A DNA stretch of 64,000 bases from the sequence record MH383160; one strand, written 5' to 3'. The notes under the pieces were generated by a model that saw nothing but the letters and a program-made list of their open reading frames with translations, made no database searches and was not told the origin of the DNA. The first letter of the stretch is position 1; each line of letters begins with the position of its first letter. The position numbers were made by a program, and so were the translations under genes. Origin of the DNA: Escherichia phage UB. Shown here one piece after another: positions 9,644 through 27,420 of this stretch.

Positions 9644-10012
9644 CTAACCTCGTTTACGTTTTTTAATTGTACTGTGCATCTTTTCGAAATAGGGAACCAA
9701 AACATATTGAACAGTTTGCCAGATAACCATTAGATTATGCACTGCACCACCAAGGATACCAAACACTAGAACAATAATTGCCATAATAGGATCACCGTCT
9801 ACCATACCCCATTTAAAGATATGTAAAATCCAAGCAATGACTAGACAAAATAAACTAAGCCAATACGTAATGAAAAATCCGGCTTGTAATTCATAATCAT
9901 CAGCAATTTCATCGTATACCGTTTCTAAAAATGATACACAAAAGAATTTACCAATTATAACCACAGTACTAATAAACAGCATAGCAGTTAAGATAATAAG
10001 AGCAATTTCCAT
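9644..10012 (-). CDS. small membrane protein
   Basis: Hydrophobic 122-aa ORF, tightly packed. Confidence 0.6.
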   Translation of the reverse strand: MEIALIILTAMLFISTVVIIGKFFCVSFLETVYDEIADDYELQAGFFITYWLSLFCLVIAWILHIFKWGMVDGDPIMAIIVLVFGILGGAVHNLMVIWQTVQYVLVPYFEKMHSTIKKRKRG

Positions 10013-10326
10013 TACATCCCTCGTTTACGCTTTTGATTGCGTCTAAATTCAGTTAGTCCACGGCTAATCGGCGGCATCAGACTACATAAAAAAGTAACAG
10101 TTGTTGGTAGTAACATCAAGTCAATCATTGCAGTGTTATCTGGTGGATCAAAAACCAAAAAATACACACAAGAAACACTAATAATGGTTGAACCGATAAA
10201 AGGAATACAAAATTCTTTTATCTGTTTTTCAACATAATCAAACATCTTGAGTACAAATAAAAATCCAACCCAACACATAATGAAATAGAATGAATACAAC
10301 GTGTAAATCAATGTTACGATATCCAT
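10012..10326 (-). CDS. small membrane protein
   Basis: Hydrophobic; start overlaps upstream stop. Confidence 0.6.
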   Translation of the reverse strand: MDIVTLIYTLYSFYFIMCWVGFLFVLKMFDYVEKQIKEFCIPFIGSTIISVSCVYFLVFDPPDNTAMIDLMLLPTTVTFLCSLMPPISRGLTEFRRNQKRKRGM

Positions 10327-10664
10327 TAGTACCTCGCATCAGGAACTTTAGCACGTAATTTATGAACGACTGGGAACAACAACAAACTTACATATGCAAT
10401 AGTTGAACCCCAATAGAATACTAATACAATTGGTTCACCATTAGAACGGAAACCTCTACTAATCATTGAGTAGTGAATAATAGGCATAATCATCGCCATA
10501 CCAAACCATGCGTGTAATTTTAATTGCAGCATGTTATCAGCGATGAATACTGAAATTGGTCGTTTAAAGAACCACATCAGAAAGTAGAATCCAGCACTAA
10601 TAATATAGTACAAAGTACTAACTTTCATATACCACGGCAGTAAATCAATAAAGTACTCCATCAT
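10326..10664 (-). CDS. small membrane protein
   Basis: Hydrophobic 112-aa ORF. Confidence 0.6.
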   Translation of the reverse strand: MMEYFIDLLPWYMKVSTLYYIISAGFYFLMWFFKRPISVFIADNMLQLKLHAWFGMAMIMPIIHYSMISRGFRSNGEPIVLVFYWGSTIAYVSLLLFPVVHKLRAKVPDARY

Positions 10665-11008
10665 TCCTCCGGTATCTTATTTCGAAGTTCAATCATAACA
10701 CAACAAATTTTAATGGTCAATATAAAAGTTAAACATATCATCCCAAGTGTGCCGTAAACTGCGGAAAAAGCTGGTAGTACCTTTCCTGTGAGTGTTGCTA
10801 CAATACATGCAATCAATGTTGATGCAAACAACGATTGATTAATGGCAGAATTCATAAAATCTTCACCATTACGTTTATAGAATTGTCGTTTAAAATACCA
10901 TCCTAGAAACATAACTACCCAAAATGATACATAAGTTGTTAGAATAATCCCTGCAAGTGAATGTGCAACTGAACTACTCCTTAAAAACTCAAGATAAGCT
11001 TCAAACAT
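10661..11008 (-). CDS. small membrane protein
   Basis: Hydrophobic 115-aa ORF. Confidence 0.6.
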   Translation of the reverse strand: MFEAYLEFLRSSSVAHSLAGIILTTYVSFWVVMFLGWYFKRQFYKRNGEDFMNSAINQSLFASTLIACIVATLTGKVLPAFSAVYGTLGMICLTFILTIKICCVMIELRNKIPEE

Positions 11009-11358
11009 TAGAAGTCTCCGCGAATTTTATCTCTACCATGAATAATGAGATGGATTAAGTATACAACTAACCAAATGAACAACCCAAAGAATACAATATA
11101 TTGTGAGATTGAGTTCAAGTGAGGATTAGCACAATAAATTAAGTGTGCCATAAGACCAACAATTGCAAACAAACCTTGAACAAGTGTGTAAAGAACTAGT
11201 GATGAATTCCTCACTGGATACAGTTTAAAAACAATTTTCTTTTTAAAATACCATAGTACTACAACTAGTGCATGATAAAAGAAAAAACCAAAAAGATAAA
11301 TCAAAGTAATACTAATCATTGTATCTGATTTAAAAAATTCTAACATTAGAATCCCCAT
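11008..11358 (-). CDS. small membrane protein, paralog of 11346..11687
   Basis: Shares ITLIYLFGFFFYH..LWYFKKKIVFKLY with neighbour. Confidence 0.65.
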   Translation of the reverse strand: MGILMLEFFKSDTMISITLIYLFGFFFYHALVVVLWYFKKKIVFKLYPVRNSSLVLYTLVQGLFAIVGLMAHLIYCANPHLNSISQYIVFFGLFIWLVVYLIHLIIHGRDKIRGDF

Positions 11359-11687
11359 TTAAAGTTATCACGAGCTTTAATAATAAAATACATAGTACAC
11401 ACCAATAACCAGACGATTAGTCCTGAAAACACAACATATTGTGTAATGTGTGGTGTATTATCAATTTGTAACATGTAAATCACATATGTCATCACACCAA
11501 ATAAAATAAACCCACCTTGTATAATGCTATATACAACTAAGAATACATTATCATACGAATACAATTTAAAAACAACTTTCCTTTTAAAATACCAAAGACT
11601 AATTACAATTGAATGATAAAACAAGAATACAAACATGTATATCAGTGTAATACCAAGCATTATATTAGATTCAAAAAACTCACGCAT
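11346..11687 (-). CDS. small membrane protein, paralog of 11008..11358
   Basis: ITLIYMFVFLFYH..LWYFKRKVVFKLY. Confidence 0.65.
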   Translation of the reverse strand: MREFFESNIMLGITLIYMFVFLFYHSIVISLWYFKRKVVFKLYSYDNVFLVVYSIIQGGFILFGVMTYVIYMLQIDNTPHITQYVVFSGLIVWLLVCTMYFIIKARDNFKWGF

Positions 11688-12551: not shown

Positions 12552-12581
12552 ATTATAGCAAAAAGGGTTGACCGAAGTCAA
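12552..12581 (-). promoter_or_regulatory. sigma70-type promoter (TTGACT-N18-TATAAT), -35 inside terminator hairpin
   Basis: Minus strand reads TTGACTTCGGTCAACCCTTTTTGCTATAAT. Confidence 0.5.
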
Positions 12582-12584
12582 CAC
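12560..12584 (-). terminator. UUCG-loop intrinsic terminator (degenerate copy)
   Basis: GTGTTGAC-TTCG-GTCAACCC + TTTTT on minus strand. Confidence 0.5.
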
Positions 12585-14722: not shown

Positions 14723-14752
14723 ATTATAGCAAAAAGGGCTGACCGAAGTCAA
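14723..14752 (-). promoter_or_regulatory. sigma70-type promoter, -35 TTGACT in terminator arm, -10 TATAAT
   Basis: Minus strand TTGACTTCGGTCAGCCCTTTTTGCTATAAT; leader near-identical to cassette at 16.0 kb. Confidence 0.55.
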
Positions 14753-14755
14753 CCC
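14731..14755 (-). terminator. UUCG-loop intrinsic terminator
   Basis: GGGTTGAC-UUCG-GTCAGCCC + UUUUU on minus strand. Confidence 0.7.
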
Positions 14756-15460: not shown

Positions 15461-15976
15461 TTAATAATTATTCATTTCATCTTTGATTTGTTCTTCAATT
15501 TCGTCGAACATATCAGTACTAGATTCGTTCTTACTACTTACGTTCTGCATATCTTTAACGTACTGTGGACATTCAACATCAGTAAACTTATACCACGTAG
15601 GCTTCATCTGGAGCTTCTCAATCAAACGATCACGAGACATTTTAATCTCTGACTCCGTTGGTACGTAGTCATTACAAAACTCAGCAGGGAAGCCGCTAAT
15701 GTCGTTTACTTCAGTGTTTTGAATCTTCATACCACGACGCAGACATTCGTTGACAATATCAATATGACGCTTCTGTAAGTACAATAACTTGTTGTAGAAG
15801 AATGTTACATGACCTGAACCCAACAGGTAAGTACTGTTAATTTTGAAATCACGAACTCGCTTACGTGCTTGAACGTGTTTTTGTACAGCACCAAATACAC
15901 GTGGGAGTTCACGATATTCAGCCATCAGATGTTGGTCAGCAAGTTCTTTAACGTGTACTAAGTTAATGCGTGTCAT
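15461..15976 (-). CDS. denV: pyrimidine-dimer DNA glycosylase / AP lyase (T4 endonuclease V family)
   Basis: [47 protein letters not shown] matches T4 DenV from memory. Confidence 0.85.
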
Positions 15977-16004: not shown

Positions 16005-16034
16005 ATTATAGCAAAAAGGGCTGACCGTAGTCAA
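16005..16034 (-). promoter_or_regulatory. sigma70-type promoter in terminator-promoter cassette
   Basis: Minus strand TTGACTACGGTCAGCCCTTTTTGCTATAAT, then conserved leader CATTTCATCGAAACGAGAGG. Confidence 0.55.
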
Positions 16035-16037
16035 CCC
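16013..16037 (-). terminator. intrinsic terminator hairpin (CGUA/UACG loop variant), T-runs both sides
   Basis: GGGCTGAC-CGTA-GTCAACCC flanked by A5 and T6. Confidence 0.7.
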
Positions 16038-16444
16038 TTTTTTCTTTCAATTAAACATAATCTACCAGCATGTACCATGCGATGGTGATTAGAACAAAGA
16101 ATTACACACTTTCGAATTTCATCTTTGATAGATTCTCGACTTTTACTGAACATAGAACTTGGTGTATGTTCTTTGGTATTAGGTTCAAGATGATGAAAGT
16201 CTAAACATTCTGGATACTTCATCATGCAAATACTACAACCATAAAATGATTTAACTCTGGTCATGAAATCTTTATTTTTTCTTTTGATTTCTTCAAGTTT
16301 TTTTACATCAGTTTTTTTATTTCTGGTTTTCTTACTGGTAATATTACTACAACATTTGCATGTATTTCTTTGTTTCCCAGTATCACTTCTTATACCAAAT
16401 TCACTAATGTCTTTTTCAATATTACACGTGATACACTTCTTCAT
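16031..16444 (-). CDS. HNH endonuclease
   Basis: Cys-rich N-terminus plus HNH core ...DFHHLEPNTKEH...ILCSNHHRMVH. Confidence 0.75.
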   Translation of the reverse strand: MKKCITCNIEKDISEFGIRSDTGKQRNTCKCCSNITSKKTRNKKTDVKKLEEIKRKNKDFMTRVKSFYGCSICMMKYPECLDFHHLEPNTKEHTPSSMFSKSRESIKDEIRKCVILCSNHHRMVHAGRLCLIERKKG

Positions 16445-16746
16445 GGTTTAACCCATTTATTCAACAATTCACCCAACTTCACAATCTCATACCCATCCAG
16501 ATAGCCATAGGAACACTCAGGTGTTTCATAAGTTGAACCATCATGGATACCTTGACATTGGCTTTTGGAACGTTCAAGCAATCGTTGCAGTACTGATACG
16601 TCATCAAGAACGTAATACAAGTTAGCATATGGGTCCGTCACAATACAGTACTTAAACATGCCAAATGTATCAATCGATTTTTCAACCTTAGCAAATTGTT
16701 TCTTTTCTTTATTATACAATGCGTACATATTAATCTCCATAATCAA
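16441..16746 (-). CDS. hypothetical protein
   Basis: 101-aa ORF, start overlaps upstream stop. Confidence 0.55.
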   Translation of the reverse strand: MIMEINMYALYNKEKKQFAKVEKSIDTFGMFKYCIVTDPYANLYYVLDDVSVLQRLLERSKSQCQGIHDGSTYETPECSYGYLDGYEIVKLGELLNKWVKP

Positions 16747-17101
16747 GTTTAACTAACTTACCATCCAGATACCCAAAGTTTTCTGGCTTCGCATCTGAAT
16801 AGAAGAAGTCAGTACTTAACTCTGAATTCAATGCTAAAGCACACAACTCCACCCAAAATAAACCCCTATGTTGCACTGGCTTACAACGTTTCTGTACAGT
16901 TACTAGTCCAGTACATGATGACCACAATGTAGGACAGATACTACTATCACTACGATTAGAGTACTGCATCCACGAACGTTCATTGAGGTTAGCTATCATT
17001 CCCGTTAAGAATAACTTCCAGCTTTTGAAGGTTGGAATCTTGATAGCGTATTCCCCAATGAGGATAACAGTTCGGGTTGCACCTTTCAAATCTATATTCA
17101 T
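16730..17101 (-). CDS. hypothetical protein
   Basis: 123-aa ORF. Confidence 0.55.
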   Translation of the reverse strand: MNIDLKGATRTVILIGEYAIKIPTFKSWKLFLTGMIANLNERSWMQYSNRSDSSICPTLWSSCTGLVTVQKRCKPVQHRGLFWVELCALALNSELSTDFFYSDAKPENFGYLDGKLVKLDYGD

Positions 17102-18568: not shown

Positions 18569-18937
18569 CTATCGATTCGGCATATTCTTTCGTAGTCGCA
18601 AGAGAAATTCAACCACTGACCATGTTGTAATGAAGGCAATATAAGTTGCAAGGAATCCAGTAAGAATGAATGCAACCAGCGTACTACCATTTGGGGAATC
18701 AGTTTTAATGCCGATGACACCATCGGCTACAGTGAAACATGTAGCCATTAATGTGTAACCTACGTACAACACAAAGAAAAACTCATTCTCCATTGAAGGA
18801 TAGAAACGGTTAAACACTTTATAAAATTTAAAGTACAGTAGGATTATACCAACAAAGGCATAGAATGTAAACAGTGTTGTTATAATATATGAGATTAGGT
18901 TCAAATTATACATATCAACGCTCCGGTAGATTATCAC
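18569..18937 (-). CDS. small membrane protein (FK.YK.LF.R.YP family)
   Basis: Hydrophobic; motif YFKFYKVFNRFYP shared with two neighbours. Confidence 0.6.
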   Translation of the reverse strand: MIIYRSVDMYNLNLISYIITTLFTFYAFVGIILLYFKFYKVFNRFYPSMENEFFFVLYVGYTLMATCFTVADGVIGIKTDSPNGSTLVAFILTGFLATYIAFITTWSVVEFLLRLRKNMPNR

Positions 18938-19262
18938 GTAATGTTTTAATTCGATGATACATTTTCATACCAATATTACCAAAGATACCATATCCAAGTA
19001 CTAAAATGTATGCAATAAGCATAGTAATAATTACTATAGTGCCAAAACTATAATGTACACTACTGATACCCATTGTAGTTTCAACGATTATTTGAGAAAC
19101 TGAAAGAATCAAAAGTACAACTACAATTGGATGATTTGGGTACATTCGGTTGAACAACGTTTTGTACTTAAAGAAGCACAGTACTCCACCGAATAAGAAG
19201 TAAACAATGTAAATGCAAGCAACAGCATAGGCAAACATGTTAGTGTAATAAATCATTACCAA
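18915..19262 (-). CDS. small membrane protein (same family)
   Basis: FFKYKTLFNRMYP. Confidence 0.6.
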   Translation of the reverse strand: MVMIYYTNMFAYAVACIYIVYFLFGGVLCFFKYKTLFNRMYPNHPIVVVLLILSVSQIIVETTMGISSVHYSFGTIVIITMLIAYILVLGYGIFGNIGMKMYHRIKTLRDNLPER

Positions 19263-19265
19263 TCC

Positions 19266-19604
19266 TTACTTTTCAGGGATATTAGAACGCCATATATCAA
19301 TGCGATGAACTAGTCCAAAGAACAACCATACTGGAACGGCAGCTATCATAACAACAAATGAAAACCCAGTCAAGACCGATACCAGATTTAATTCATCAGT
19401 ACTATACCCACATATCAGTACTTCTAATATTCCCCACGTACATGCACAAAACATCAAGAATGAAATTGGGGCATCATAGTAGATACGTTCATATAAAGTA
19501 GTGTATCGGAAGAATGCAATAATGTAGCAAAACATATAATACACCCAAACCAAAGATACTACATAAAATGATACTTTGTTTATTAATTCAAAATATTGTT
19601 CCAT
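19266..19604 (-). CDS. small membrane protein (same family)
   Basis: FFRYTTLYERIYY. Confidence 0.6.
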   Translation of the reverse strand: MEQYFELINKVSFYVVSLVWVYYMFCYIIAFFRYTTLYERIYYDAPISFLMFCACTWGILEVLICGYSTDELNLVSVLTGFSFVVMIAAVPVWLFFGLVHRIDIWRSNIPEK

Positions 19605-19888: not shown

Positions 19889-19949
19889 GATTTTATCCTT
19901 TACCGCAATTTTTATGGTTTATTAAGAATACACCAGAACATCAGTTCTG

Positions 19950-20591
19950 TCAATAAAAAACTGGATCTTCTTCAGTAATTGGTATTTCTCTACGCACATC
20001 ACACGAAAGAGGATCAGTAATGAATACATTCCCATCTTTATCCATCATCACATTACTTGAATGAATGTCTGGTACAAAACGCCCGTGAAACTCTTTCATG
20101 ATGTTAGCAGCGACCGTTGCAATAGCAATCTCTTCAGAATTTCCACGCATATCATTCACTGAAGTAGCGTACTGACCAGCATGTGCATAAGAATATAAAT
20201 CTCCAATTTTAGTACTAACAAAGTCATCATAATTATTTTTTTGTTTAATTATAGGATAGTACTTGTCCATCTCATACCATCCAAAGTTTCCTTGTTCGTT
20301 TGCACTGTAAATCACTGGAAGAAACTTGGTTCCTGCGTTTTCAATGCAGTACTTTGCATAAGCACGAAAACCATCCCAGCGTGAAGTGGTTACTTTAAAT
20401 GCACGTCCAGGATAGTTTTTATGTTCAACTACTACAGAGTACATCCCCATTCCAAGCAAAGTAAGTCCAGCAGCTTTAACTTGTGGAAAGATTACGCGTT
20501 CAGCATAAGGAATATCAAACTCCATCGCACAACGAGTTTTTGATGGACGCAAAATGTCAATTAAAGTTTTGAATATTTCTTGCTTAGTCAT
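19950..20591 (-). CDS. protein kinase-like fold protein (putative)
   Basis: DIHSSN (D-x4-N catalytic-loop-like) followed by VFITDP; start moved to ATG 20591 with AGAGGA RBS because ATG 20624 lies inside the promoter -10. Confidence 0.5.
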   Translation of the reverse strand: MTKQEIFKTLIDILRPSKTRCAMEFDIPYAERVIFPQVKAAGLTLLGMGMYSVVVEHKNYPGRAFKVTTSRWDGFRAYAKYCIENAGTKFLPVIYSANEQGNFGWYEMDKYYPIIKQKNNYDDFVSTKIGDLYSYAHAGQYATSVNDMRGNSEEIAIATVAANIMKEFHGRFVPDIHSSNVMMDKDGNVFITDPLSCDVRREIPITEEDPVFY

Positions 20592-20619
20592 TACTTTATC
20601 CTCTGTAGTTAATATCAAC

Positions 20620-20649
20620 ATCATAACAAAAAAGGCTGACCGAAGTCAA
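20620..20649 (-). promoter_or_regulatory. promoter in terminator-promoter cassette (TTGACT-N18-TATGAT)
   Basis: Minus strand TTGACTTCGGTCAGCCTTTTTTGTTATGAT. Confidence 0.45.
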
Positions 20650-20652
20650 CCC
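20627..20652 (-). terminator. UUCG-loop intrinsic terminator
   Basis: GGTTGAC-UUCG-GTCAGCC + U-run. Confidence 0.7.
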
Positions 20653-20660
20653 TTTTATTA

Positions 20661-21704: not shown

Positions 21705-21733
21705 TATTTACAAAAAAAGGCTGACCGAAGTCA
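21705..21733 (-). promoter_or_regulatory. promoter in terminator-promoter cassette
   Basis: TTGACT in hairpin arm, 17 nt, TAAATA. Confidence 0.4.
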
Positions 21734-21736
21734 ACC
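21712..21736 (-). terminator. UUCG-loop intrinsic terminator
   Basis: GGTTGAC-UUCG-GTCAGCC + U7. Confidence 0.7.
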
Positions 21737-21746
21737 TTTTGTTTTA

Positions 21747-23294
21747 TCATTTACCGTATTTGCTCATGATGTCCTTTTCCCAAGGAGTTACATTTCCATT
21801 TTCGTAATCACGGAAAGAGTCATCAAGTGTAGTCAATGCATAATCATATGCCTCACCGGATTCAACATCAATATCAACAGCACCATTCACTACATCAGTC
21901 CACGCTTTTTGTAGTTTACGAGCGTTGTTACCAACTTTATCTTTAATCCAACTAAGATTTCGGTTTATACTCTTCTTATCAGCACCAGCTTTTTCACCAA
22001 CATCTGCAACCCATTGCATTAATTTCTGTAGTTCGTTATGGGATTTTTCAGTCATTTGGCGGTCTTGTGACAGTTCAGCTTCCATGTCATCAATTTCTTC
22101 GTCTGAATGAACATCTTTCTGTTCAACTGCACCTTCTTCATCTGCACGCTTTAGATAACCATCTGGTGTTACCTTCTCACCATGTTCAGCTTCATACTTT
22201 TTCATAGTGTTGAATGCAGCATCCATAGCTGTTACGAAGCGGCTTTTCTCACCTTGTACATAAGATTTAAGTACGCTGTTAACAGCGTCAGATACGAGCT
22301 TAACCTTATCGTCTTTACCTTCTAAACGGTTTTCAAGTTTAGCTAGTACATTCTTGACTTGCTGTGCATTAGCACGGTCTGCTTTACCAATACTATCAAA
22401 AGTTTTAAGAATACTTTCCAGATTAACATCATCGTGTGAGTGTTCATCAAACTCAATATCATTATTTTCGTCTTCATCCTTGAGCGTTAATCCCATTGAT
22501 GTGAGGTCATCAGCAGCACTTGACATTGACATACGAACTGCACGAGAATCATTTACATCATCTACATTTTCAATTGCCATATCAATAATGTACAGTGCTT
22601 TCTCTAAGTCTGTATATTGTTTAGCTTGATTGATAATATCGTTCACAAACTTAGCACCTAAGTAATCATTTACTTCACGGAATTCGTCTTCAGACATTCT
22701 TCCACTAGGTTTGCTTGGTTGTTGATCGGTCTTTTGTGGTAAGGATTTCTGTTTACCTTCAAGTGCACGCATGATAGTACTGAATACTTCAGTAGGTTCA
22801 GTACTGGTATTTCCACTCATTGCATCAAGTACAGCTTGTGCTTTGACTTTTAATTCTTCTTTAGGTACAGATTGCAATTCTTTCACAATACCTTGGATAA
22901 GTTGTGGTTTATTAGCAAAAATCTTACCTAACTTATCAGACAGTTCTTTGACAGGGTTAACCGCCTTTGGTGCTTCTTGTTTTGGTTCTTCTTTCGCAGG
23001 AGCAGACTTTTCTTTTTCTTCACGTTCCATATCAGCTAGGCGTTGTTTTTGTGTAGCATTAAGAAGTCCCAATGAATTAACATAACGTAGCTTTTCTAGC
23101 TCAGTCATATTGGAAGTATCAGTGCCTTGTGTTGCTACTGTGTTTGCTTTACCAGCTTCACCAGTCCCCATGTTTCTAGAACCTTTAGAACCTTGACCTG
23201 CCATATGTGAATTAGGTCTGCGATTTTTTTCTGACCACTTCTCGCTGTGTCCAGAAATGGTAGCACCATTTTTTGATTTGAAATTATCTGGCAT
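21747..23294 (-). CDS. large acidic hypothetical protein (N-terminal domain paralogous to 24185..24568)
   Basis: 515 aa, Glu/Lys/Asp-rich; YVNSLGLLNATQKQ...KELQSVPKEELK shared with neighbour. Confidence 0.65.
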   Translation of the reverse strand: MPDNFKSKNGATISGHSEKWSEKNRRPNSHMAGQGSKGSRNMGTGEAGKANTVATQGTDTSNMTELEKLRYVNSLGLLNATQKQRLADMEREEKEKSAPAKEEPKQEAPKAVNPVKELSDKLGKIFANKPQLIQGIVKELQSVPKEELKVKAQAVLDAMSGNTSTEPTEVFSTIMRALEGKQKSLPQKTDQQPSKPSGRMSEDEFREVNDYLGAKFVNDIINQAKQYTDLEKALYIIDMAIENVDDVNDSRAVRMSMSSAADDLTSMGLTLKDEDENNDIEFDEHSHDDVNLESILKTFDSIGKADRANAQQVKNVLAKLENRLEGKDDKVKLVSDAVNSVLKSYVQGEKSRFVTAMDAAFNTMKKYEAEHGEKVTPDGYLKRADEEGAVEQKDVHSDEEIDDMEAELSQDRQMTEKSHNELQKLMQWVADVGEKAGADKKSINRNLSWIKDKVGNNARKLQKAWTDVVNGAVDIDVESGEAYDYALTTLDDSFRDYENGNVTPWEKDIMSKYGK

Positions 23295-24147: not shown

Positions 24148-24175
24148 TATATAAAAAAAGGTTGACCTTAGTCAA
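24148..24175 (-). promoter_or_regulatory. promoter in terminator-promoter cassette
   Basis: TTGACT in hairpin arm, ~17 nt, TATATA. Confidence 0.4.
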
Positions 24176-24178
24176 CCC
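24153..24178 (-). terminator. intrinsic terminator hairpin (loop variant), bidirectional
   Basis: GGTTGAC-CTTA-GTCAACC flanked by A7 and T5. Confidence 0.65.
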
Positions 24179-24184
24179 TTTTTA

Positions 24185-24568
24185 TTACTTCTTGAACTTA
24201 TGTTTTTCACTTTCGATTGCATTCACGATTTCATCATGAATTTTACGAAGATTGTGAGTTTTCTTTAGAGATTCATGTAATGCACGGAATGCAGAGTGTA
24301 CAGTTGCTTTAAAGTGCTCTTTAGGAGTTACTTTAAGTTTCTCGATAATATCACGTACATAAATTGGGTGATCTTCAAACACACGATTTAGCTCATGGCC
24401 TAGTGATTCTAGACTGAATGCTTTTTCACGTGAAGGGCGATCATGTGCAAGACTTTGGTCCGGTTTTAGAAGACCTAGTGAATCTAGATACTTGTGCTTA
24501 TGTGCATTGTCTAGACCAGAAATATCAACATCATGTGATGGATCTTTCTTATTCCATTTATCAACCAT
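24185..24568 (-). CDS. hypothetical protein (paralog of N-terminus of 21747..23294)
   Basis: YLDSLGLLKPDQ and KLKVTPKEHFK motifs. Confidence 0.6.
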   Translation of the reverse strand: MVDKWNKKDPSHDVDISGLDNAHKHKYLDSLGLLKPDQSLAHDRPSREKAFSLESLGHELNRVFEDHPIYVRDIIEKLKVTPKEHFKATVHSAFRALHESLKKTHNLRKIHDEIVNAIESEKHKFKK

Positions 24569-27387: not shown

Positions 27388-27417
27388 ATTATAACAAAAA
27401 AGGCTGACCGAAGTCAA
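27388..27417 (-). promoter_or_regulatory. promoter in terminator-promoter cassette (TTGACT-N18-TATAAT)
   Basis: Minus strand TTGACTTCGGTCAGCCTTTTTTGTTATAAT. Confidence 0.55.
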
Positions 27418-27420
27418 CCT
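27395..27420 (-). terminator. UUCG-loop intrinsic terminator
   Basis: GGTTGAC-UUCG-GTCAGCC + U6. Confidence 0.7.

Follow-up and report, generated by a model that had tools for sequence, protein, structure and literature searches.

The DNA analysed here, hereafter the window, is a stretch of 64,000 nucleotides (nt) of Escherichia phage UB (sequence record MH383160). Its minus strand carries, at positions 19950-20591, an open reading frame (ORF), hereafter the kinase ORF, the product of which reads MTKQEIF...DPVFY. The first-pass annotation, made from the sequence alone, had noticed a DIHSSN motif and a downstream ITDP in this ORF and had proposed an atypical protein kinase of the early gene block, of a kind that is rare outside T7-like phages. 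Both motifs are present (residues D175-N180 and I191-P194), and the evidence presented below makes it very likely that the kinase ORF is a stand-alone kinase domain of the family of T7 gp0.7 (T7K, UniProt P00513), carried by an Asteriusvirus jumbo coliphage. The kinase reading is thus supported, although the protein would be no new kind of kinase, but a homologue of the T7 kinase that lacks the C-terminal domain. The gene and its ribosome-binding site are as follows:

19950..20591, minus strand: coding sequence of the kinase, 213 amino acids (aa) plus a TGA stop codon (19952-19950), ATG at 20591, from the ORF list and the sequence
20599..20603, minus strand: ribosome-binding site GAGGA, from the sequence; its position is kept in the copies of the upstream element described below

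An alternative in-frame ATG at 20624, used by one database cluster (P0001), would add 11 residues and give a protein of 224 aa. This longer reading is unlikely. The ATG at 20591 is preferred because all homologues except P0001 start at the MTK/MKK position, because the GAGGA ribosome-binding site stands 7 nt ahead of it and because the ATG at 20624 falls within the -10 hexamer of a promoter-like element. The gene belongs to a run of ca. 114 co-directional, mostly small, minus-strand ORFs that begins at ca. 8.2 kb and reaches the window's end.

The profile search that had been proposed as a check on the kinase idea matched the ORF to PHROG kinase families and to T7 gp0.7. PHROG 15752, annotated as "protein kinase; inhibitor of host transcription...", was matched over the full length (E 4.7e-92) and PHROG 2828, the T7 gp0.7 family, at E 8.1e-17. 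When a 25-sequence family profile was compared with T7 gp0.7 by hhalign, residues 34-210 were aligned with T7K residues 61-230 (probability 98.5%, E 3.7e-15). A search of 5.8 billion proteins retrieved 27 homologues, down to 38% identity, all of which bear a precomputed match to Pfam PF27024 (Phage_T7_kinase); they are 211-237 aa long, aside from one 224-aa cluster that starts at the upstream ATG and one partial sequence of 180 aa. NCBIfam and PADLOC scans of the kinase ORF gave no matches, so that, as far as these models can tell, it is without a recognised defence-system kinase identity.

With the kinase ORF as a tblastn query, 773 phage records were matched, 27 of them at 60% identity or more and 746 at less than 60%. 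Among the matches listed, those of the latter class were all ~40-kb T7-like podophages, whose matched gene either bore a gp0.7-type kinase label or had no name; annotated kinases of the gp0.7 type were reached by the hundreds, at E 1e-8 to 1e-15 (best 2e-15). The claim of rarity outside T7-like phages is borne out broadly by these numbers (746 of 773 records), but the jumbophage exception had already been annotated and published. When 1.84 billion cluster representatives were searched exhaustively with HMMER, 1475 clusters were found at E <=1e-3 and 194 at E <=1e-10; the diversity of the T7-type kinase family in metagenomes therefore far exceeds that in isolated phages.

A 3-kb query around the kinase gene is 99.5% identical in DNA sequence to Escherichia phage vB_EcoM_phAPEC6, and 97.9% identical to phage G17; for Asteriusvirus jumbo coliphages other than phAPEC6, of ca. 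350 kb (G17, 121Q, PBECO4, SP27 and others), identity is 96-99%. The protein is 100% identical to the copy of phage SP27. The equivalents phAPEC6 gp031c, G17_00108 and 121Q gene 205 are labelled "protein kinase" in GenBank, as are those of PBECO4 and UE-S1; gp031c carries the note "Klebsiella phage K11 gp0.7; PKc_like" and G17_00108 the note "PHA00451 protein kinase" (CDD). Homologues of T7K in jumbophages, including Escherichia phage G17 and Salmonella phage Munch, have been identified as devoid of the shut-off domain (PMC13645617). The kinase gene is thus already known, both as an annotated gene in GenBank and as a published jumbophage homologue of T7K; since PMC13645617 lists G17, which is 97.9% identical over the 3-kb query, its identification at the sequence level is already published. 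The homologues of G17 and Munch, and those of phAPEC6, 121Q, PBECO4 and UE-S1, represent the same gene, from which the kinase ORF differs in nothing substantive. The present analysis adds a residue-by-residue comparison with T7K, a promoter/terminator element upstream of the gene and the finding that conservation of the T7K Ser216 position does not extend to the wider jumbophage-type clade.

Catalytic residues and predicted fold

The residues of the kinase ORF that correspond to catalytic elements of T7K, and one presumed regulatory position, are located as follows:

20445..20453, minus strand: glycine-rich ATP-binding loop G47-M-G49, invariant in alignments A1 and A5, aligned with T7K G74-N-G76
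20394..20396, minus strand: K66 in an A-F-K-V strand (predicted strand 63-68), invariant in both clades, aligned with T7K K93
20373..20375, minus strand: D73 at the start of helix 75-84 (αC equivalent), invariant in both clades, aligned with T7K D100
20052..20069, minus strand: catalytic loop D175-I-H177-S-S-N180 (GAC ATT CAT TCA AGT AAT), with D175, H177 and N180 invariant
20007..20021, minus strand: DFG-equivalent metal-binding motif I191-T-D193-P194-L195, with I191, T192 and D193 invariant and P194 nearly so
20004..20006, minus strand: S196, the equivalent of T7K Ser216 in the hhalign alignment

In the hhalign alignment, D175-I-H-S-S-N180 is placed against T7K D195-M-H-S-G-N200, and D193-P194-L195 against D213-P214-V215, the "DFG-like DPV motif" of T7K. 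The reading of DIHSSN as a kinase catalytic loop and of ITDP (I191-T-D193-P194, encoded at 20021-20010) as the motif of the metal-binding aspartate was thus correct. The N-lobe motifs, i.e., the glycine-rich loop (in full G47-M-G49-M-Y-S-V-V), K66 and D73, had escaped the first pass and are conserved equally. From the role of the VAIK lysine in protein kinases, K66 is presumed to bind the α- and β-phosphates of ATP, and D73, whose pairing is inferred, is presumed to be its salt-bridge partner; D175 is the presumed catalytic base and N180 a presumed Mg ligand. In T7K, substitution G76F in the glycine-rich loop yields a catalytically dead mutant (PMC13645617).

All 25 homologues of alignment A1 (38-66% identity by BLAST) share D175, H177, N180, I191, T192, D193 and P194, and all of these residues except P194 remain invariant after the addition of T7 gp0.7 and six T7-type kinases. 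Invariant positions shared by jumbophage-type and T7-type sequences comprise G47, G49, H57, K66, D73, P92, D175, H177, N180, M182, I191, T192 and D193. Since the motifs are invariant across homologues, they cannot be put down to chance. T7 gp0.7 and the kinases of T3, of Bas64-68 and of Salmonella phage JSS1 (JSS1_004), whose kinase domains are homologous to the kinase ORF, share with it the G-x-G loop, the lysine, the D-x-H-x-x-N catalytic loop and T-D-P in place of DFG, and in all of them the kinase fold ends shortly past the T-D-P motif. The genes for T7K and for the kinase ORF are alike set among small early-type genes. The two proteins differ in length (213 aa versus 359 aa in T7K, which alone has the C-terminal shut-off/DNA-binding domain), in the motif (DPL versus DPV) and in the carrier (a ~350-kb myovirus-type jumbo phage versus a 40-kb podovirus).

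Structure prediction, also proposed in the first pass, produced a confident model and pointed to no unrelated fold. The AlphaFold2 model, based on the 25-sequence alignment, has a predicted local distance difference test score of 93.6 and a predicted template modelling (TM) score of 0.89. It contains three N-terminal helices (residues 3-40), a five-stranded β-sheet N-lobe with the αC helix (75-84) and long helices 127-139 and 152-168, which are followed by the strands bearing the catalytic loop and the metal motif and, with one short strand beyond the DFG-equivalent aspartate, by the C-terminus. The elements of the kinase fold, i.e., the N-lobe sheet with αC, the catalytic loop and the metal-binding aspartate, are thus present in the model, which matches kinase-fold structures only. 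A Foldseek search of BFVD retrieved protein kinases of T7-like phages over nearly the whole query (probability 1.0, E ~1e-14, TM score 0.70-0.75), the best match being A0A3T0IG88 (213 aa, 62% identity).

The kinase ORF ends 20 residues after D193. An activation segment ending in APE and helices αF to αI (subdomains VIII-XI) are absent from both the sequence and the model, and nothing in the kinase ORF aligns with T7K residues 231-359, the C-terminal host shut-off/DNA-binding domain. As judged by these alignments, it is a member of the kinase-domain family without the full two-domain architecture of gp0.7.

A different arrangement of T7-type kinase domains was observed in the metagenomic proteins P0036 (1021 aa), P0037 (1343 aa) and P0061 (813 aa), which contain ca. 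4-6 such domains in tandem per polypeptide, each unit running from ...NEL-x-GYK... to ...(I/V)-x-DP. The gene for P0036 lies close to the end of a phage-like contig of 56 kb (locus L009, 193-3258), a few genes from a homologue of Gad2 (anti-Gabija) and a 5'-3' exonuclease.

Upstream element and expression

The following features bear on expression of the kinase gene:

20620..20649, minus strand: σ70-type promoter-like site, TTGACT, 18-nt spacer and TG-n-TATGAT (extended -10), found by a promoter scan with 10/12 matches plus the TG
20628..20656, minus strand: terminator-like hairpin GGGTTGAC-UUCG-GUCAGCC followed by a T run, RNA folding energy -17.4 kcal/mol, z = -5.4
19934..19949, minus strand: weak terminator-like hairpin directly after the kinase stop codon, from a terminator scan; stem of 6 base pairs, T run poor
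12561-12583, 14732-14754, 16014-16036, 20629-20651, 21714-21736, 24155-24177 and 27397-27419, minus strand: intergenic copies of the upstream element
21747-23294 and 24185-24568, minus strand: genes for virion-associated proteins within the early-looking block, phAPEC6 gp035c and gp037c, from the virion proteome

The upstream hairpin looks like a terminator for the preceding gene, and its 5' arm holds the TTGACT -35 hexamer. In phage G17, it is annotated as a putative terminator, while the promoter part is left unannotated. A 23-nt core, GGTTGACTTCGGTCAGCCTTTTT, lies directly upstream of the kinase gene and occurs in seven minus-strand copies between 12.5 and 27.4 kb, compared to 0 expected by chance. 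The consensus of the seven copies is AAAAGGGTTGACTTCGGTCAGCCTTTTTTGnTATAAT, with GAGGA ca. 20 nt further on and an ATG ca. 7 nt after that; the promoter consensus within the copies is TTGACT-N18-TATAAT. The element is probably a combined terminator and σ70-dependent early promoter. Its position suggests that the kinase gene forms a separate σ70-driven unit, transcribed by the host polymerase and, if so, expressed early.

No published transcript data bearing on expression of the kinase gene were found in our literature search. The kinase is missing from the table of the phAPEC6 virion proteome, in which the nearby gp035c and gp037c are present. The product of gp035c is labelled "chromosome segregation protein" or, by PHROG 20398, "virion structural protein"; both proteins may be packaged and injected with the DNA. 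The placement in an early block, as proposed at first, is a reasonable simplification but not established: the σ70-like promoter and the arrangement of genes speak in favour, the virion-associated products of gp035c and gp037c nearby against.

Neighbouring genes and a second kinase-fold ORF

Other features of the window are listed below:

19266-19604, 18915-19262 and 18569-18937, minus strand: tandem genes for three small hydrophobic paralogues (PHROG 19285, unknown function)
33-8222, plus strand: array of paralogues, at least six in number and ca. 270-400 aa long, all beginning MLPF(A/G/P)R(M/L)(V/L/I)KY(G/A)N, with ca. 27% Ser/Thr/Tyr
16730-17101, minus strand: 123-aa minimal kinase-fold ORF, hereafter the mini-kinase, which reads as a kinase cut right after the DFG motif
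16031-16444, minus strand: HNH endonuclease (PHROG 2255, E 1.8e-31), two ORFs downstream of the mini-kinase
15461-15976: homologue of T4 endonuclease V (DenV), following the HNH endonuclease

The three hydrophobic proteins, likely membrane proteins, are encoded downstream of the kinase gene with one 93-aa ORF in between, and each terminates in R-x-N-(I/L/M)-P-x-(K/R). Small hydrophobic ORFs of similar appearance recur ca. 8 kb further on, in a second run at 10012-11687. Judged by position, the plus-strand array appears to correspond to phAPEC6 gp003-gp010, the "DNA condensation proteins" of the virion proteome. No conserved gene partner of the kinase gene was found in the divergent relative L004, where the neighbours of the kinase show no similarity to those in the window; in L007 and L008, the neighbours are small unannotated ORFs, and no partner or operon logic emerged across these three relatives.

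The mini-kinase sequence runs G-A-T-R-x-V...Y-A-I-K-I-P...A-N-L-N-E-R...S-D-A-K-P-E-N-F-G...K-L-D-Y-G-D-stop. The mini-kinase was matched to PHROG 4301, "unknown function" (E 2.4e-44), and its homologues in the protein search are 118-127 aa long and all end at the same D-Y-G-x position, one 102-aa partial sequence aside. Positions invariant in 14 protein-search sequences (alignment A4) include G7, T9, R10, K21, N38, E41, D103, K105, P106, N108, D120 and G122; on the strength of these residues, the mini-kinase can be said to hold the full catalytic set of eukaryotic-type kinases. No sequence relationship to the T7-type kinase family was detected by hhalign, and hidden Markov models of either kinase family recovered only their own ORF within the window, i.e., no paralogues.

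In a tblastn search, the mini-kinase matched 125 phage records. Its carriers are T-even phages (G4507 and the BASEL phage PaulHMueller), several jumbo phages, Pseudomonas siphophages and phages of 68-69 kb (presumed N4-like) and of 89 and 145 kb (presumed FelixO1-like and rV5-like). Among the matches listed, it is labelled "hypothetical" save in the records of three phages, and the stretch is unannotated in phAPEC6. A literature search on phage mini-kinases brought up nothing relevant, and the family is not listed in the kinase survey of PMC13645617, though it is carried by a T-even phage of the BASEL collection. It may be a more original lead than the T7-type kinase ORF itself.

Small kinase folds from which most of the C-lobe is missing are known from the bacterial effector kinases OspG and NleH and from the archaeal RNA kinase ArkI (solved chains of 169-216 residues). 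They were related to our proteins by fold matches only, chiefly to the mini-kinase, and no sequence relationship was detected. Their precedent indicates that truncated kinase folds can be active. OspG requires E2~ubiquitin as an activator. The mini-kinase gene of G4507 (gp272) adjoins a tRNA cluster; that ArkI is a tRNA kinase makes this position worth noting, as a matter of speculation. A split kinase, with the C-lobe supplied by the ORF downstream of the mini-kinase, was considered and rejected: from phage to phage, these downstream ORFs are dissimilar, and they are unlike the C-terminal half of the longer protein of Kosakonia phage Kc263.

Activity, alternative readings and biological role

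One can envisage the action of the kinase as follows. Shortly after infection, host σ70 RNA polymerase would start transcription at the strong promoter-like element that belongs to the gene. The protein is predicted to adopt a truncated kinase fold with neither an activation segment nor helices αF to αI, a layout common to T7-type domains. Judged by the invariant residues and by the experiments on T7K, G47-x-G49, K66 with its partner D73, N180 and D193 would bind Mg-ATP, and, with D175 acting as the base, the γ-phosphate would be transferred to Ser/Thr, possibly also Tyr, on host and phage proteins. D-P-L in place of DFG would hold the enzyme constitutively active, as proposed for the DPV of T7K. 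The shut-off domain of T7K binds DNA and biases the kinase toward nucleic-acid-binding proteins (PMC13645617). Since this domain is missing here, neither kinase-independent shut-off of host transcription nor T7K-style steering to nucleic-acid-binding proteins would be expected. Most proteins of host and phage are substrates of T7K, which also overcomes several defence systems; its Autographiviridae homologues are likewise hyperpromiscuous, act on Ser, Thr and Tyr and counter such systems (PMC13645617, Nature 2026). By analogy with T7K and the JSS1 kinase, the role of the kinase ORF is most probably host takeover and/or the disarming of host defences by phosphorylation.

Several observations weigh against the assignment or against parts of it. 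Identity to T7-type kinases is only 19-32% (19-25% in the alignment and 26-32% by tblastn). PDB sequence searches, whether with the single sequence or with the profile, yielded no significant match: E-values were at least 0.015, the best match (spectrin) was spurious and the best kinase matches had E ~1. General Pfam protein-kinase models were not matched by the kinase ORF in a Pfam-A scan taken up to E 10. That local scan gave no significant match for the kinase ORF, for one relative or for T7 gp0.7; since the local copy holds no model that matches T7 gp0.7, its silence is uninformative about kinase identity. The valine of the T7K DPV motif is a leucine in the kinase ORF; this valine is reported to be less conserved among jumbophage homologues (PMC13645617). 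Kinase activity of the jumbophage members is predicted from sequence, and early timing is read from a match to a promoter consensus, while genes for virion proteins share the co-directional block with the kinase gene. Depletion of Ser/Thr/Tyr is a signature reported for early proteins of T7-like phages. The median Ser+Thr+Tyr content of the 114 minus-strand ORFs is 18.1% versus 27.2% for the seven plus-strand virion paralogues, a crude comparison that is uninformative without temporal classes or a control phage.

The autoinhibitory serine of T7K, Ser216, weighs in the same direction, as it is not kept in most relatives. This residue is the reported site of inhibitory autophosphorylation, and the serine has been stated to be conserved in all variants (PMC13645617). 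In alignment A1, the S196 column holds Ser only in the kinase ORF and in one distant relative (P0025), the others having Gly or Ala. Regulation may therefore differ. The alignment is at odds with universal conservation of the serine and qualifies the published claim, most jumbophage-type homologues having Gly or Ala.

An active T7-type kinase need not be promiscuous, and the kinase ORF could instead be a regulator of narrow specificity that acts on a few defined host proteins, for example a translation factor, RNase E/III or RNA polymerase, in the manner classically ascribed to T7 gp0.7. The DNA-binding domain that gives T7K its target preference is missing, the jumbophage clade, to which promiscuity is ascribed by analogy, has diverged, and the classical annotation of PHROG 15752 speaks of RNase III/E regulation and transcription inhibition. 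The wording of that annotation, however, resembles the classical description of T7 gp0.7 and, in our reading, is unlikely to stem from tests on these proteins. Moreover, the proposed features of hyperactivity (D-P-x instead of DFG, lack of an activation segment) are kept, and every T7K homologue tested was promiscuous (PMC13645617). We consider a narrow regulator possible, if on the doubtful side.

Less is to be said for a protein that works without phosphotransfer. A pseudokinase or ATP-binding scaffold, acting by binding host proteins, would suit the truncated C-lobe, from which the activation segment and the substrate-binding helices are gone, and activity in the jumbophage clade is itself a prediction. 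Pseudokinases typically lose some catalytic residues, whereas here G-x-G, K66, D73, D175, N180 and D193 are invariant down to 19% identity, and T7K shares the truncated layout yet is highly active. Because every catalytic residue is invariant, we find this reading improbable. A small-molecule kinase of the aminoglycoside/choline-kinase type, with an antibiotic, nucleotide, sugar or lipid as substrate, is very improbable: the demonstrable homologues are protein kinases, and neither the H-x-D-x4-N motif of aminoglycoside phosphotransferases (APH) nor a match to APH/choline-kinase models was found in the kinase ORF. As to a chance motif in a protein that is not a kinase, the sole point in its favour is the lack of a match to general Pfam kinase models, and the profile and fold evidence leaves it practically no room.

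The T7-type kinase domain thus remains the preferred reading. Beyond it, one may speculate that the kinase ORF is a hyperpromiscuous, constitutively active anti-defence kinase that operates without the DNA-binding domain of T7K and that, together with the mini-kinase of the same early-type block, it exemplifies kinases ending after the metal motif as a general, largely overlooked phage tool; we put this forward tentatively and regard it as rather unlikely. If it is true, kinases cut off right after the metal-binding motif would be widely used by phages to rewire the host. T7-type kinases have been shown to disarm several defence systems; awareness of a domain-minimal copy in Asteriusvirus matters for phage-therapy candidates in that group, and such a kinase bears on how target preference arises without a DNA-binding domain.

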